From UHGV virus genome UHGV-0213393: DNA of 64,000 nucleotides; one strand, written 5' to 3'. The DNA is from a virus. Position 1 is the stretch's first letter, and each line of letters starts with the position of its first letter. The notes below the pieces were generated by a model. The model was given only the letters and a program-made list of their open reading frames with translations, was not told where the DNA came from and made no database searches. A program made the position numbers and the translations under genes. Shown here piece by piece: positions 437 through 9,925 of this stretch.

Positions 437-1645
437 ATGAGTCAGCAAGTAGAATCATCAAGCCTGGAGATCATCTCAACCGCAATTGAAACGCTGCGGA
501 CACAAATCGCGCTTATACAGAAACGAAATCCGGGCGATGACCTGTCAAAGCGACTGCATGAGAGCGTCATTGCCACTACAGATAACCTGGTGGCGGAAAT
601 CAACCAGCTCCTTGATGATGGGGCAGTTGATTACAATAAGCTGGTGGATCAGTTTGAGGAATATCAGCAAGCCGTTAATGATGGCTTGATCCGTTTTTCT
701 CAAGTCACTGGTGTATCAGCGACAGTTGAAAGCCTGGGGGATGCAGTTAATCAATTTGCCGCGAATATGCGTAATGAGATCGGCAATCTGGAGGCGCGTC
801 TTGAGCAGGCAAATACACTGCGCAAATCTGCTGAAGTCGATTTGAGTCGTTACAAAAAAGACTATCCGCCAAGCCTGACAAAACGACTGGATGTTGCGGA
901 GAAAGATAACCGCACGCTGAAAAGAGAGCGTCGCGAACTAAAAGAGCGTTTAACCAAGCTAAATCAGCAATGCGTTGAGTATCAAGGCGAACTCGTCACA
1001 CTGCGTAAAAAGTTAGCAGCGGCGCAGAGCATTATTGAAACATTGAAACGAGAGTGTTCAGAGCTTGGTCATGATCTGAATCGCGCCTGTGGCATGGGGC
1101 AAAGGCCAGAGACATTCCCGCTAATGTATGACGGAAGAGAAGCTATTGCCTATATCCATGAGTTTCCGCATGGTCTGGTCGCGGAGACTGGGCAACGTGG
1201 CGAAGCGTTGCTGACGGCAAATTACCATCAGCAAATCAGAACCAGCCGCCTGCTGACGATGGATGTGATCCCATCAGTATGGGGAACGCCGCTTTACTAC
1301 CGAATTCCTGGCTTCGAAACTGACTGGAATACCGACATAGACGAATGTCTGGCAGATAAAATTATGGCGTACCTTGAAACGGATTTTCCACGCTTGCATC
1401 GCCGGATTATGGACTCTAAGGATGCACCGATCGACGAATTGAAAATGCGTCCAGAGACGTTGGAGGCAATCAAGCAGACTGAGTTTGATACAGTGTTCAG
1501 TGTGGCCTGCATTCCAAGCAGCTTTCATGAAAGCATTCCGTTCATGCAGGGCGATCGCCGTCAGGAAATAATTGATGCTTGCCGGGTATGGGCGAACGAG
1601 TGGGATAAGAAGAACGGTGGAGTTGAAAATCTTTACGGGAAATAA
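437..1645 (+). CDS. hypothetical coiled-coil protein
   Basis: 402-aa ORF with RBS aaggaaggga; heptad-rich charged central region; no recognised catalytic motif. Confidence 0.6.
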   Translation: MSQQVESSSLEIISTAIETLRTQIALIQKRNPGDDLSKRLHESVIATTDNLVAEINQLLDDGAVDYNKLVDQFEEYQQAVNDGLIRFSQVTGVSATVESLGDAVNQFAANMRNEIGNLEARLEQANTLRKSAEVDLSRYKKDYPPSLTKRLDVAEKDNRTLKRERRELKERLTKLNQQCVEYQGELVTLRKKLAAAQSIIETLKRECSELGHDLNRACGMGQRPETFPLMYDGREAIAYIHEFPHGLVAETGQRGEALLTANYHQQIRTSRLLTMDVIPSVWGTPLYYRIPGFETDWNTDIDECLADKIMAYLETDFPRLHRRIMDSKDAPIDELKMRPETLEAIKQTEFDTVFSVACIPSSFHESIPFMQGDRRQEIIDACRVWANEWDKKNGGVENLYGK

Positions 1646-1679
1646 TGTGTTAGAAAATTAAAATTGTCTTTCTAACATA
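1646..1679. promoter_or_regulatory. operator-like inverted pair (TGTTAGAAAAT-N9-CTTTCTAACA)
   Basis: tgttagaaaat ... tctttctaaca inverted repeat directly after the 437..1645 stop. Confidence 0.55.
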
Positions 1680-1794
1680 TTGATTATAGGGTTAACTTAA
1701 CATAGAATTTTTCGTGCTGGTGGGGAGCTTCCCATGTCGCTTGCGGGTTTGATAGTCACTTCATTGTCTTTCCCCACCAGCATCAAACAAATTT

Positions 1795-1815
1795 AAGTGT
1801 TAGAAAGTAAATTTT
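1795..1815. promoter_or_regulatory. operator-like motif copy
   Basis: aagtgttagaaagtaaatttt. Confidence 0.4.
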
Positions 1816-2505
1816 AAGGTAAGGGAAAGCTCCGGCACCGTGCAAATACATGCCCGGCAGGTTTAGTGCGTAAAGTGGTTTCAGCGAGAGCATTTTACGG
1901 AGTAAACGACAGTGACTTGAGCCACGGAAGGTCTTTTTAAGGTGTTCATTGATGATGATCTGGCAGTGAGTATGTTAAGTGGGCCAGGCTGCATCGGGTC
2001 ATCATCAGTGAACATCCTCAACGTTAAGGAGGCGCAGAGTTGGGTTTTCCTCTTATTTTGCTGACTCTGAGTCTCCTTAACGTTGCGGTAATGCACCTAT
2101 GCGGATGTGGCCTTGCATTGTGTTTTGAAAGAATGGGGGTAAGGCCGGGGATATCCCCAGGGGGAGGCACCCCCGCTGCAACGAACAGCCATAGACGGCA
2201 GTCGAGTGATGAAAACGTGAAAAGACTTTAAACCTCGTTACGGCTGGCGTGGCAAACGCGACAACCGGGATAGGACGGTGACGGGCGGAGAGAGAGCCGC
2301 TTCAAGATAAAAGCCGACTATGGATTCCTTTCTGCGGGCCTTTGAAAGTGAATCTTGCTCAGGCAGTCGGCTTTTATGTTGATACGTAGCGATAACCGCG
2401 ACAGGCGCGGCGGTAAGTATGGCGGGGTTATTCCTTCCCCGTTGAGGACACCGAGTTGCCAGGTTGACCATACGCCTAAGTGGCAATACCGCGAGTGGGA
2501 TATTT

Positions 2506-2530
2506 GCCCACCTTCGGGTGGGTGTTTTTT
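2506..2530 (+). terminator. rho-independent terminator
   Basis: gcccacc-ttcg-ggtgggtg followed by tttttt; closes an ORF-poor structured region. Confidence 0.7.
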
Positions 2531-2991
2531 CAGTGTTTTCGTCATGGTTAGCGACTTTGCGGCGGTTTAGAAACTGACCATTAAAGTAAATGCAAACGAT
2601 GATCTGATGATGGTAGCGGCCTAAGAAGCCTGACGCCACGGGGTATGAGTCGTCCCCCGTCAAAAAATCGACCGCAGAGTGTCCCCGTCTGTGTATTAGG
2701 GAACGGGGAGGCATAACAGGCAAGGGCGCTGGTGTGATTAACCAGATGAATGAGAAGGGTCAGGTCTTTCTGGTCAGCGCCCTTACCTGTTACGTCCTTC
2801 CCGCGTAACAGCCATTGGTTAATGGCTTTCTGGAATAATGTCTTGTAACGGGTATATCCCGTCATGCTGAAGGCGCTAATCACGCTGGAAGCCAGGGTTA
2901 TGCATCCCCTGTTACCGAATTGCAGCCAGGGCGCGGTGCGCCGAAAAGCATACGGAGGTGGAAGCCCTCGCCGGAGACGTACCCGGCAAGT

Positions 2992-3066
2992 GATGGTGTA
3001 GCTCAGCGGTAGAGCAGTTGGCTGTTAACCAACTGGTCGGTGGTTCGAATCCACCCACCATCGCCA
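2992..3066 (+). tRNA. tRNA-Asn (anticodon GTT)
   Basis: Hand-folded cloverleaf: acceptor gatggtg/caccatc, anticodon loop ctGTTaa, T-arm ggtggttcgaatccacc, 3' CCA encoded. Confidence 0.85.
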
Positions 3067-3238: not shown

Positions 3239-3479
3239 ACACAACAGGTAAGAGCATTTGTAGAGTTCGACTCTCTACCGTGGGCTTTTTCCCGCGATGC
3301 GAGCCATAAATGCTCTTTCCGTTGTGGTGAATGCGCGTTGCTGGCGCGCAAGTCCGCCCTATGGCAACGAGGCGGCGTAGTAAATATCGATGCCTCAGTC
3401 ATCAAGCGCACTGACCGGCCTTATGGGCTATGAAAAAAAGAGGCGCAGTCGGAGATCAGTACCGACCACCACAATCACT

Positions 3480-3566
3480 GGAGAGTAGGGAGCATGGTGC
3501 TCAAGCGGTCTTGAAAACCGTCCCGTCGCGCAAGCGATGATGGTTCGATTCCATTACTCTCCGCCA
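3480..3566 (+). tRNA. tRNA-Ser (anticodon TGA), long variable arm
   Basis: acceptor ggagagt/actctcc, anticodon loop ctTGAaa, long extra arm, T-loop ggttcgattcc, CCA encoded. Confidence 0.65.
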
Positions 3567-3995
3567 TCGCAACGTTAAGAGTATTTGGCTAATTAAGCGA
3601 ATGCCGGAAGCAGAACCGGATCACCAAATGCGTACAGGCGTCATCGCCGCCCAGTCAGCCAAATGCTCTTACCATTGCGGTGAATGCGGCTAAGCGCACG
3701 CGGAACAGTTAAAACAGTAAAGGTGGTCTTTTTACTGGCGTAACGAGAATCCATAAGTGATCCGGCGTTAATTGTTAACTGGTTAACGTCACCGGGAGGC
3801 ACCCGGCACCGCAACCTAACAGCAATGGCGTTTTGTCTTAAAAGGTGGCTGCAAGTGATGGATTTTTGGGCGTTTGCCGATAAAAACCCGGAGTGGACAT
3901 TATTGTTTCTGCTGGTGGTTGCATACGGGGTAGAGCAAGCGGCAAAAGCCTTACGCGGTTCTGGCAAAAAGCGTAAGCGTAATTAACAGTAATCT

Positions 3996-4071: not shown

Positions 4072-4525
4072 CATTTGGTTGTAACACGGCGTATGGCACA
4101 TGCGTCGTTAGCGGTCTGGTGTAGCTGTTAGGTGCCTTACTAACACTGCATGGGCACATCAGGTAGCCGGAATGTGCAAGTCACCGTTGGTAGGATAGCG
4201 GACTCAGGGACTCACCATCCTGGCGATTCGGTGTGACAGCCGGAATAGCACGGCGTACAACAGGAAAAGGTGTTTAATTAATACGAGCGCCTTCTCCGTT
4301 GTGGTAATTGCGGCTATGCGCTCGTGACGAAGCCATTTTCATTCACTACGTTCTGATAAGTGTCGTCGCCGGGCGTGGCTAACCTGGCAGGTGGAGGCAC
4401 CACCGCCACAACTCCTTTCAATTCATCATATAGCCGCTCAGGCTGTAACCCTTAATTAATACGAAGTTACGACGTCACTACCGGTTCAGCCGGGGGATAG
4501 TCGCGCGTGTAAAAAAGGAGACGTT

Positions 4526-8887: not shown

Positions 8888-9925
8888 TTACCAGAGTTTT
8901 GCCGCGTACATCGTTTGTGTGAATGTGTACCCATAGCGTTCTTCAACGCTTTTACCGTATTTTTTCCTGGCTTCAGTAAGGCGGATGCCTGTCAGGTCAT
9001 CGCCGGAGGCAATCATAACTTCCAGTAGTTCCAGGTCCATTTTATCCAGCCTTGCCATTGCATCTTTAGCCTCTTGAATTTTCCGGCTAACGATCTGGTG
9101 TATGGCTGGATCGGCTTCGGCCAGCATTTTATCTGATTTGTTTTTTAAACTCTGATTGCGGATATCAATGTTTCTCAGGATATATGACTTCACGACATAG
9201 CTTGGCTGCTGCTTTTCCAGATCACGAACCCGATAAAGGTCAAATTCGCCGAGAAGTCCGCACGGAAGCGGTTTAATGCCAGTGTAAATGGTAAGGGTAC
9301 GGCGCTCACCAACGTTGTTAACAACGGGAATCTCTGTGTTTGCTTTTCTTGCAAAGATCAGCGCACCGTGCGCACCCACTCGGAAGCGTGAAAGTCCATT
9401 GTTGCCCTCGATATTGGTGGTAATCACCACATCGGTATAACCTTCTTTTCTTGCGCGGTATACCTCGCCCTCACGTTCAGCGGCGAAGAATCTGCGTTCT
9501 TCTTCAAGCGCACCGACAACCTGTGAAAATATCCTGTTTTTCATGCTTTTCTTTATAGTTTTATCGTATTTTTTCAGCAGGTCTTCGCGCGTAAATGTTC
9601 TCGTTGTGGTTGCGCTTTGCATAACGATATGCGTACTCTGATTAGTATCCTCAACAATGAATGGGATCGGTAAATAAACCGACTCAACAATGTTTGAGGC
9701 TTTGTCATCATCCTTGCGACACAGATCAACAAAGGCTTTCCATTCGGCTATGCATTTTTCAGCTTCTTCTAATACAGCCGGATCATGTGTTAATGCAACA
9801 TGGCGAAATTCCTCGCCAACATAACTGGTATCATGGAAAACAGAGTTTGCGACCACCAGCTCTTTCCACCGTTCAGCGGTTTGCAGGAACCGTTTGTACT
9901 CATTCTCGATCGACTTCTTACTCAT
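8888..9925 (-). CDS. hypothetical protein; candidate C1-type repressor by synteny only
   Basis: Start chosen at MSKKSIENEY with RBS AGGA; sits between terminase and the lox/cre module, where P1 carries c1; operator-like motif in its own promoter. Confidence 0.5.
   Translation of the reverse strand: MSKKSIENEYKRFLQTAERWKELVVANSVFHDTSYVGEEFRHVALTHDPAVLEEAEKCIAEWKAFVDLCRKDDDKASNIVESVYLPIPFIVEDTNQSTHIVMQSATTTRTFTREDLLKKYDKTIKKSMKNRIFSQVVGALEEERRFFAAEREGEVYRARKEGYTDVVITTNIEGNNGLSRFRVGAHGALIFARKANTEIPVVNNVGERRTLTIYTGIKPLPCGLLGEFDLYRVRDLEKQQPSYVVKSYILRNIDIRNQSLKNKSDKMLAEADPAIHQIVSRKIQEAKDAMARLDKMDLELLEVMIASGDDLTGIRLTEARKKYGKSVEERYGYTFTQTMYAAKLW

Follow-up and report, generated by a model that had tools for sequence, protein, structure and literature searches.

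A mosaic non-coding leader of a P1/D6-like phage-plasmid contains a conserved RNA core with predicted complementarity to host tmRNA and an SsrA-like tag frame

Which RNA, or RNAs, are encoded in the 1.3 kb that lead into the tRNA array of a P1-like phage-plasmid? The question is raised by positions 1690-2990 of the virus genome UHGV-0213393, of which one strand of 64,000 nucleotides was analysed (the window). The original prediction, made from the sequence alone, described a structured region poor in open reading frames (ORFs), proposed that it gives one or more structured non-coding RNAs directly upstream of the tRNA array, and could not match it to transfer-messenger RNA (tmRNA). The non-coding RNA proposal is borne out by the lack of a conserved ORF, strongly negative folding z-scores and covarying helices in relatives. 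We propose that 1690-2990 is the non-coding, processed leader of a phage-plasmid tRNA operon, made of separately mobile structured-RNA modules; the region is a mosaic of at least six modules with differing distributions, and thus more than one RNA. As for tmRNA, the failure to find a match was right with regard to membership, given the lack of a tRNA-like domain; the best-conserved module is nonetheless related to tmRNA in two ways, by its antisense complementarity and by its SsrA-like tag frame. From its sequence we argue that this module, the leader core at 2533-2709, would act on host tmRNA by base pairing, masking the host template and probably supplying a template of its own; we consider this proposal to be evenly balanced between right and wrong.

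The core consists of five parts:

2533-2580, plus strand: anti-tmRNA domain, antisense to host tmRNA nt ~57-105
2581-2591, plus strand: A-rich single-stranded linker UUAAAGUAAAU, 11 nt long, or 12 nt if the count starts from the last CUGACC base (2579)
2592-2624, plus strand: tag frame GCA AAC GAT GAT CTG ATG ATG GTA GCG GCC TAA = ANDDLMMVAA*, seen in sub-threshold Rfam tmRNA matches
2639-2672, plus strand: pseudoknot A, with the stem CGGGG/CCCCG (2639-2643/2655-2659) and the loop GUCG (2649-2652) pairing with CGAC (2669-2672)
2673-2709, plus strand: pseudoknot B, with CGCAG/CUGUG (2673-2677/2689-2693) and UCCC/GGGA (2682-2685/2706-2709)

As far as sequence comparison can tell, the core represents a widespread ~180-nt RNA family of enterobacterial phages, without prior RNA annotation. 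A sensitive blastn search with 2530-2991 matched 251 phage records from unrelated groups via the first ~180 nt, and with a second query 728 of 50,697 phage records were found to carry the family. The carriers are T1-like, N4-like, ViI-like, FelixO1-like, T5-like and lambdoid (HK620) phages, Chaseviridae and P1-like phage-plasmids, to which 623 plasmids and 135 Escherichia coli chromosomes must be added. Non-coding DNA is the setting of all copies, most of which precede tRNA genes or follow pR', and their annotation is either "none" or spurious hypothetical proteins, never an RNA feature. In 120 bacterial ssrA loci an nhmmer profile of the element has no match, and in the window it detects a single copy (2534-2710, E 4.6e-42). 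Transcription in T1-like and FelixO1-like phages is predicted to begin with the opening bases of the antisense domain, from consensus sigma-70 promoters (TTGACA-17-TAGATT and TTGACA-17-TATAGT); the element of lambdoid phages is downstream of pR', and in P1 it is inside the leader of the ban operon, at about 68.88-69.07 kb. No description of the element was found in a literature search which had most subscription journals outside its reach. In plasmid CP122779 (1137-1176 and 2500-2583), the copy is split by a TnpB (IS200/605-type) insertion in the antisense domain and pseudoknot A is lost; this is probably a dead copy.

The target of the antisense domain comprises most of pseudoknot PK1 of tmRNA (nt 57-78), the linker, the resume codon and tag codons 1-5. 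With the E. coli tmRNA sequence taken from the RefSeq genome, RNAduplex gives -45.5 kcal/mol for the domain of the window against nt 56-108. Across the lineages tested the values are -41 to -47 kcal/mol, always at nt 54-108, and 0 of 60 shuffles were as good (z -3.2 to -5.9; -3.3, -5.6 and -6.2 with dinucleotide shuffles). The reverse complement of the window domain aligns with ssrA nt 52-104 under permissive settings and with nt 68-104 under stricter ones (z 5.7, 0 of 1000 shuffles). Over 15 lineages, the reverse complement aligns with nt 68-106 (80-106 in two of them) with z of 2.7 to 10.1; the score is unreached by 1000 shuffles in 10 of the 15, and in the other five it is reached by 27 (Uz-1), 16 (Serratia 3M), 5 (HK620), 3 (L070) and 1 (Sf11) of them. 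The sense orientation of the domain scores at background against ssrA. When 700 decoy targets are ranked together with tmRNA, the latter comes within the top 1-3 (top 3 for the window domain), while pairing of the domain with the element's own downstream part is at background in the same test. The net gain upon cofolding, in three lineages, is -11.8 to -16.1 kcal/mol vs -2.5 to -5.7 for shuffled controls. No other segment of the region stands out when sliding 60-nt windows are compared with tmRNA, in a scan that is noisy and splits the antisense domain over two windows. A partner complementary to GCGACTTTGCGG was also sought in the window, with chance-level matches only.

The predicted duplex is made of blocks. 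GUUUUCG(UC) pairs with C(A)GAAAAC of tmRNA (nt 95-104, tag codons 2-5), GCGAC with G87-C91 (the resume codon included), UUUGCGG with C75-A81, CUUUUUA with U68-G74 and CUGACC with G57-G62. The stretch A82-A86 of tmRNA is bulged in most lineages, and paired in the N4-like, FelixO1-like and Erwinia-phage versions. The columns of the domain which never vary coincide with the pairing blocks, and the changes of GCGAC (GUGGC, GCGGC and GCGAU) are all transitions that keep the pairing with G87-C91 via G-U. The target (tmRNA nt ~54-106) hardly varies among the Enterobacterales genera sampled, including most host genera of these phages, which explains why the module moves freely among Enterobacterales phages. 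What is expected of an antisense RNA against tmRNA, namely an extended and specific complementarity and a target that is present and conserved in the hosts, is thus found here. The ssrA genes of Yersinia and Sodalis differ in the target stretch (AATAATTGCAAACGACTCGCAATAC); according to the model, phages of these two genera should lack the element or have an altered one.

A phage RNA that pairs with a non-coding RNA of the host recalls the trans-encoded antisense small RNAs (sRNAs) and prophage sponges, such as AgvB and AsxR, whose mode of action is that of anti-sRNA sponges. The two latter, from Shiga-toxin phages, are named in the Pas preprint. Unlike them, the element targets tmRNA, engages ~48 nt in five or six blocks vs a short seed, and carries a translatable template.

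The evidence for a template comes from what follows the domain. In 39 of 40 elements, 12 nt of linker separate the last antisense block from the resume codon; all 47 distinct elements have A at position -4 and U at position -1, and 44 of the 47 have U at position -5. E. coli tmRNA carries U85 and A86 at the corresponding -5/-4 places, and these bases help to set the frame of tmRNA. The frame has exactly 10 codons in 47/47 elements, like the E. coli SsrA tag, ANDENYALAA. It encodes 12 peptides of the form AN[DE][DEN]xx[LMR][AMV][AV]A: ANDDLMMVAA, ANDDVVLMAA, ANDDLMLMAA, ANDDLMLAAA, ANEEMYLAVA, ANEEVYLAVA, ANEEMYLAAA, ANDEQFLAVA, ANDDQFLAVA, ANDNVFLAVA, ANDNAFLMAA and ANDNEMRAAA. One peptide can be encoded by up to five nucleotide sequences, and synonymous codon differences number 191 in the tag frame vs 19 and 56 in the other two frames. 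At the level of these nucleotide comparisons, the tag frame is shown to be under purifying, codon-level selection on the peptide.

In 37 of the 47 elements an in-frame stop lies 8 codons upstream, with no ATG, GTG or TTG in between. A conventional mini-ORF (an AUG frame, MQTMI* and similar) was considered and rejected: its length ranges from 5 to 13 codons and it has almost no synonymous variation. According to the original prediction, a short ORF under codon-level selection would have spoken against a non-coding RNA. The 10-codon frame is formally such an ORF, but it makes no protein gene, because it lacks a start codon and is set in a tmRNA-like context.

Two H-type pseudoknots occur at fixed positions after the frame, and all four of their helices covary. 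The helix between the loop of pseudoknot A and the downstream strand has six Watson-Crick versions (CCGA/UCGG, CCAG/CUGG, CCAA/UUGG, GUCG/CGAC, UCGA/UCGA and CUAG/CUAG), whereas the first helix of pseudoknot B has seven versions and the second has five across the family.

Two side observations concern the frame and the tRNAs near it. The element has a conserved in-frame UAG 8 codons before the resume codon, and in an N4-like viral contig the tRNA cluster which contains the element also contains a tRNA with anticodon CTA (9535-9610), an amber suppressor according to ARAGORN. In the Klebsiella phage-plasmid type, an 83-nt tRNA-like gene called tRNA-Phe(GAA), with a long variable arm (3248-3330 in one of two loci), has an acceptor stem, GCAAACA/TGTTTGC, of the same sequence as the start of the tag frame, which may be chance.

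How could such an RNA act? Cofolding predicts that, as long as the RNA is free, its own resume codon and first codons are held by the antisense domain. In the mechanism that we propose, this domain would anneal to the single-stranded template of host tmRNA, invade PK1 and mask the host resume codon. Pairing with tmRNA would at the same time free the resume codon of the phage RNA and release its template, because in the free RNA the domain is predicted to hold that codon. The phage template would leave the duplex beside tmRNA nt ~54-57, where PK1 normally sits, with the resume codon 12 nt further on; for comparison, 11 nt separate PK1 from G90 in E. coli tmRNA. A ribosome rescued by the host Ala-tmRNA/SmpB would then decode the phage template, in what would be a chimeric, two-piece tmRNA with its tRNA-like domain from the host and its template from the phage. 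The minimum effect would be that host tagging is blocked. The further step, a template swap in which the docked RNA makes host Ala-tmRNA/SmpB chimeric and all the ribosomes rescued in the course of infection write the phage tag instead of ANDENYALAA, we put forward tentatively, as somewhat more likely to be wrong than right. The phage tags (e.g. ANDDLMMVAA, ANDDVVLMAA or ANEEMYLAVA) keep AND or ANE at the N-terminus, and in place of the terminal LAA they have [VM]AA or A[VA]A, preceded by Leu, Met or Arg at position 7; these altered ends may redirect the rescued proteins to another proteolytic fate.

It may be, on the contrary, that the element is a pure inhibitor or sponge of tmRNA, which masks the resume codon and PK1 or triggers cleavage by RNase III, and whose frame is never translated; the tag-like frame would then be an internal mimic that keeps the antisense domain folded until tmRNA is met. 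The complementarity to tmRNA, which is the strongest fact, agrees with this explanation, as do the lack of a tRNA-like domain and the predicted pairing, in the free RNA, of the antisense domain with the element's own resume codon and first codons. Inhibition of tmRNA by a phage RNA also has a precedent, in mycobacteriophage DS6A, whose tmRNA is reduced to the tRNA-like domain (PMC4131195). Yet inhibition does not explain why 10 codons and a stop are kept in 47/47 elements with hydrophobic, Ala-rich C-termini, nor the synonymous excess in codons 5-10, which are outside any pairing with the antisense domain, nor why U(-5)/A(-4) are conserved and the linker length is fixed at 12 nt. We find it unlikely for these reasons, although it deserves serious consideration. 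The chimeric two-piece tmRNA would be the simplest account of all the facts. A pure inhibitor accounts for the antisense domain and leaves the codon-level selection unexplained.

Several points weigh against the proposal that the element pairs with tmRNA and provides a template. All the support for it is computational. The P1-type copy in the window has a net cofold gain of -7.4 against -6.2 (sd 2.5) for its controls, which is not significant, and its duplex z is only about -3.2. Host-specific covariation is unusable as a test, as the target does not vary among the relevant hosts. Self-pairing, instead of coding, could be part of the constraint on the first four codons. The duplex would need PK1 to open, and it could instead be a substrate of RNase III; besides, we know of no precedent for a template supplied to tmRNA in trans. 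In P1, D6 and the window, an intrinsic terminator is located 3 nt upstream of the antisense domain, so that expression needs read-through or processing. Last, the phage tags still resemble SsrA degrons, and the benefit of a tag swap is therefore not evident.

Is the element a tmRNA in its own right? The likeness is clear in the frame, which opens with GCA AAC GA. and no start codon, has 10 codons as in E. coli and a hydrophobic/Ala end, and in its surroundings, with U(-5)/A(-4), a single-stranded linker of ~11-12 nt before the resume codon, and pseudoknots after the frame. The tag frame thus has what is expected of a tmRNA (an Ala resume codon without a start, a hydrophobic/Ala end and a stop). 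E. coli tmRNA has three pseudoknots after the frame, vs two downstream pseudoknots in the element. Upstream of the resume codon there is no PK1: the upstream 48 nt have no covarying helix of their own, and PK1 is replaced by the domain antisense to the host PK1 and template. The Rfam tmRNA models (RF00023 / RF04321) give 25.1 bits in the window and 25-33 bits in relatives, under the gathering threshold of 47. As to the tRNA-like domain (an acceptor stem with G3-U70, a T-arm and a 3' CCA), ARAGORN detects no tmRNA in the window or in 27 related loci, and a scan for a T-arm plus acceptor stem, which could have revealed a hidden domain, found ordinary tRNAs only, and had no hit of any kind in at least 13 element-carrying loci. 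Since it lacks acceptor stem, T-arm and CCA, i.e. the tRNA-like domain, the element is not a tmRNA. The proposed active form resembles the two-piece (permuted) tmRNAs in that it would be held together by intermolecular pairing, with the difference that its second piece would be the host's own complete tmRNA.

Among tRNA-like sequences around the element, N4-like phages have aberrant pieces 90-165 nt upstream of it (Uz-1 2310-2381; ~90 nt upstream in a viral contig), with good T-arms and no proper acceptor stem or CCA, which are not found in other lineages. Odd tRNA-like pieces also occur inside some of the boundary stems described below, but this is not general. A pairing of GAUAGU, at the 5' end, with the acceptor 3' strand of the phage tRNA-Ser was rejected, the bases being not conserved across lineages.

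The papers on tmRNA databases include phage tmRNAs only if they have the tRNA-like domain, and for DS6A they give a form that consists of this domain only (PMC4131195; PMC11915505). DS6A is comparable to the element in that it encodes a partial tmRNA thought to interfere with host trans-translation (PMC4131195; PMC11915505). The two are mirror images: DS6A has the tRNA-like domain and no tag frame, whereas the element has a template and an antisense domain.

The absence of the tRNA-like domain, and the copy that was split by the TnpB insertion and lost pseudoknot A, could also be read as signs of a captured tmRNA gene in decay, or of a scar left by recombination, in either case without present function. 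This is very improbable. A truncated copy of the host ssrA was looked for, and local alignments on the sense strand are at background, with no similarity beyond the 11-nt GCAAACGAyGA. The element is near-identical in P1, D6 and the window though the neighbouring tRNA genes differ more, and at least seven unrelated phage groups have kept it, together with compensatory changes and variation at synonymous sites.

What surrounds the core? By megablast, 1600-3000 of the window belongs to a D6/P1-like phage-plasmid, with 98.9% identity to the E. coli plasmid CP104667 and 88.6% to phage D6; the identity to P1, P7 and SJ46 is ~88% across 2387-3000. The non-coding region lies downstream of a PmgS-like head-morphogenesis gene (437-1645) and is followed by genes for tRNA-Asn, Tyr, Thr and Ser and for a tRNA with a CAT anticodon. 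The P1 counterpart extends from just past the C1-controlled promoter Pban (operator Op72) to tRNA-Asn, and is therefore the leader of the ban operon; its sole annotation in P1 is "dicF-like region". The part at 1640-2395 is confined to the D6 lineage, while 2531-2991 is near-identical in P1, D6 and the window, more conserved than the adjacent tRNA genes. The features outside the core are:

1644-1681, no strand assigned: palindromic box AATGTGTTAGAAA-N12-TTTCTAACATATT, an inverted repeat which abuts the promoter and is kept in D6-like relatives
1680-1708, plus strand: sigma-70-like promoter TTGATT-17-TAGAAT, from a promoter scan
1714-1783, plus strand: 5' hairpin, the first inverted repeat of the original prediction, z -3.8
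1940-2018, plus strand: long hairpin formed by an inverted repeat, z -6.4
2019-2085, plus strand: hairpin CAACGTTAAGGAG...CTCCTTAACGTTG, z -7.2
2078-2186, plus strand: STnc100-like multi-branch core (GTTGCGGTAATGC ... GGGGGAGGCACCCCC-GCTGCAAC), recognised by shared motifs
2187-2300, plus strand: conserved non-coding stretch, near-invariant in the D6 lineage, with no ORF and no Rfam match
2302-2382, plus strand: hairpin followed by UUUUAU, terminator-like, the second predicted inverted repeat, z -4.9, kept in D6
2396-2492, plus strand: DicF-flank module, a homologue of the segment that immediately precedes DicF in Qin-like dicB operons
2505-2530, plus strand: intrinsic terminator with the expected make-up, a G+C-rich stem (2505-2524) and TTTTTT, conserved in P1 and D6
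2714-2792, plus strand: long hairpin, the third predicted inverted repeat, z -6.7, whose interior varies by 1- and 2-nt indels
2793-2991, plus strand: structured 3' domain of the P1 lineage, the last ~135 nt almost invariant, ending at tRNA-Asn
2992-3066, plus strand: tRNA-Asn(GTT), first gene of the tRNA array fed by the leader

The three predicted inverted repeats are real, with arms at 1710-1726/1771-1787 (88% complementary), 2302-2319/2365-2382 (94%) and 2714-2731/2775-2792 (94%); only the position of the first, given as 1722-1790, was a few bases off, the quoted letters being found at 1716-1726 and 1771-1781. Two additional long inverted repeats are present, at 1936-1958/1999-2021 and 2003-2040/2064-2101. 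Each of the five hairpins beats all shuffles (0 of 200 dinucleotide shuffles as good, z -3.8 to -7.2), and z is -6.8 for the larger stretch 1709-2530 and -3.4 for 2531-2991. The terminator that was thought to close the region also exists, with a stem at 2505-2524 and a T-run to 2530, but it sits mid-region, and the 460 non-coding bases past it are the most conserved ones of the region.

An alignment of six sequences was used for the comparisons of 1640-2395 in the D6 lineage. Both promoter hexamers are kept in the six, which diverge by ~18% elsewhere. The arms of the 5' hairpin (GCTGGTGG/CCACCAGC) are invariant around a variable interior with indels, and the block 2078-2300 is almost invariant. 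The covariation analysis across relatives that had been suggested as a check revealed compensatory helix changes. In D6-like relatives, those in the hairpin 2019-2085 are CAACATT.../...AATGTTG and CAGAG/CTCTG -> TAGGG/CCCTG.

The palindromic box next to the promoter is, from its sequence, probably an operator or an activator site. The motif GTGTTAGAAA occurs 20 times in the window vs 3.9 expected, four times as the same palindrome with a 22-bp spacing; the sites are at 402, 1647/1669, 1797, 22099/22121, 26976/26998 and 41045/41067, among others. A phage transcription regulator, which could be a late activator or a repressor, probably binds to this motif.

Could the region be an ordinary operon leader, made of processing spacers and Hfq-type sRNAs (STnc100/PasD-like and DicF-flank-like) which act on host mRNAs or aid tRNA release, the complementarity to tmRNA and the tag-like frame being incidental? 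The modules at 2078-2186 and 2396-2492 bear on this question. The closing helix and the invariant AGGCA-loop hairpin of the former are common to copies at 3781-3822 and 4388-4412, and both are found in the Rfam STnc100 consensus. The likeness to STnc100/PasD (RF02076) includes the closing helix GUUG.GG...CC.CAAC, the GGUGAAU/GGUAAU junction, the 5-bp AGGCA-loop hairpin near the 3' strand, and the same late-leader and tRNA neighbourhoods. The difference is that Rfam gives no match for 2078-2186, that the best window copy, 3676-3813, scores 40.8 bits vs the cut-off of 47, and that no terminator follows.

The DicF-flank module is 91-93% identical to lambdoid phages and occurs in 4002 of 5426 E. 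coli genomes, and it is absent from D6. It corresponds to what is labelled "dicF-like region" in P1. It is ~92% identical to the segment immediately upstream of DicF in the processed RNA of the dicB operon; the window differs in having no DicF sequence itself (no match to RF00039 in 1640-3000 at E up to 10), and the module ends in a different terminator. In phage mEp460 the module is directly upstream of a true DicF (76.7 bits), inside the dicB operon. At 1990-2240 of mEp460, in this Qin-like operon, DicF is flanked on both sides by modules of the same kit: upstream, a core closed by GTTGTGGC...GCTGCAAC, and downstream, TGCGGTGAATGCGGCTGAGCGCACGCGGAACAGTTAAAAC, near-identical to 3676-3716 of the window. 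The modules around DicF may be processing cassettes for embedded sRNAs.

The ordinary leader can thus draw on the known prophage sRNAs STnc100/PasD that adjoin such elements, on the fact that the DicF-flank module is part of a transcript known to be processed, and on the arrangement of the modules, which are adjacent to tRNAs and separated by conserved boundary stems. As the sole explanation we hold it to be improbable. Unrelated phage lineages share the complementarity to tmRNA, each time at the same coordinates of tmRNA and with z reaching 10, and the tag frame has a coding signature, neither of which is expected by chance. The Rfam scan that had been recommended, run on 1640-3000 with permissive thresholds, returned sub-threshold tmRNA and chance microRNA matches only; no family is above threshold and no sRNA family is placed in the region.

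Past the core, the hairpin 2714-2792 is the counterpart of the GGTAAGAGC/GCTCTTTCC boundary stems found between modules in other phages. The 3' domain that follows is present in P1-like records only. Its hairpin 2812-2827 covaries (CCATT/AATGG, GTGCT/AGCAC and AATTGC/GCAATT), and further helix changes in the domain are GTTACG/CGTAAC -> GTTGTG/CGCAGC and GAGG/CCTC -> AAGG/CCTT. It may be a further sRNA or a signal for tRNA processing.

The same module kit is found again in the spacers between the tRNA genes, at 3240-3478, 3567-3822 and 4260-4415, where boundary stems ACAGGTAAGAGC...GCTCTTTCC are followed by STnc100-like cores (GTTGTGGTGAATGCG ... GGAGGCACC ... CCACAAC). An insert at 3261-3279 resembles a T-arm (GTAGAG-TTCGACT-CTCTAC). 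The tRNA-Ser(TGA) at 3479-3566 scores 45.7 bits with the tRNA-Sec model of Rfam (cut-off 47), above its score with the general tRNA model, an oddity which the annotators of D6 noted as well. Between tRNA-Ser and the tRNA with the CAT anticodon, 3825-3986 contains an ORF of 53 aa with a hydrophobic core and a Lys/Arg-rich tail, a shorter version of which is annotated as a hypothetical protein in CP104667.

Does the region encode small proteins instead? The description as ORF-poor is right in substance, as there is no conserved ORF in 1690-2990. Mechanical ORFs do exist, including one of 161 aa (2238-2723, minus strand) and one of 100 aa (2581-2883, minus strand), and none of the ORFs of the region has a Pfam match above the curated cut-off. 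A protein homologue, which together with codon-level selection would have contradicted the original prediction, was found for the 100-aa ORF (phrog_27020, E 5e-47), but its frame is broken among P1-type relatives: the ORF is interrupted by 1- and 2-nt indels in a set of 16 distinct P1-type sequences, and its variable parts change as the hairpins listed above for 2812-2827, not as codons. From these indels and this hairpin-wise change we conclude that phrog_27020 is a spurious ORF, annotated repeatedly on the same conserved DNA, which explains the PHROG family. Likewise, the plus-strand ORF of 63 aa at 2040-2231 is frameshifted in the 98.9%-identical plasmid CP104667. Thus, no ORF combines a frame kept across relatives with family support. 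That the 100-aa ORF, or the hypothetical proteins that some records (such as those of phages SJ46 and JL22) have here, are real proteins is in spite of the phrog_27020 match scarcely credible.

The tmRNA-SmpB system is the main ribosome-rescue system of bacteria, and it influences the development of several phages (lambda-P22 hybrids, Mu and P22). The literature searched describes no phage factor aimed directly at the template part of tmRNA, and we found no earlier description of what is new here, a mosaic leader with an anti-tmRNA, tag-template RNA core. This core RNA suggests that phages block or re-program ribosome rescue. If that is true, ~1.4% of the sequenced phages, including textbook phages such as P1 and HK620 and the T1-like, N4-like, ViI-like and FelixO1-like groups, would carry an unannotated RNA that blocks or re-programs trans-translation, and a tmRNA template supplied in trans would for the first time be known from nature. 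It would also be clear why the leader of the P1 ban operon is so extremely conserved, and these phages would provide a natural antisense design against an antibiotic target.

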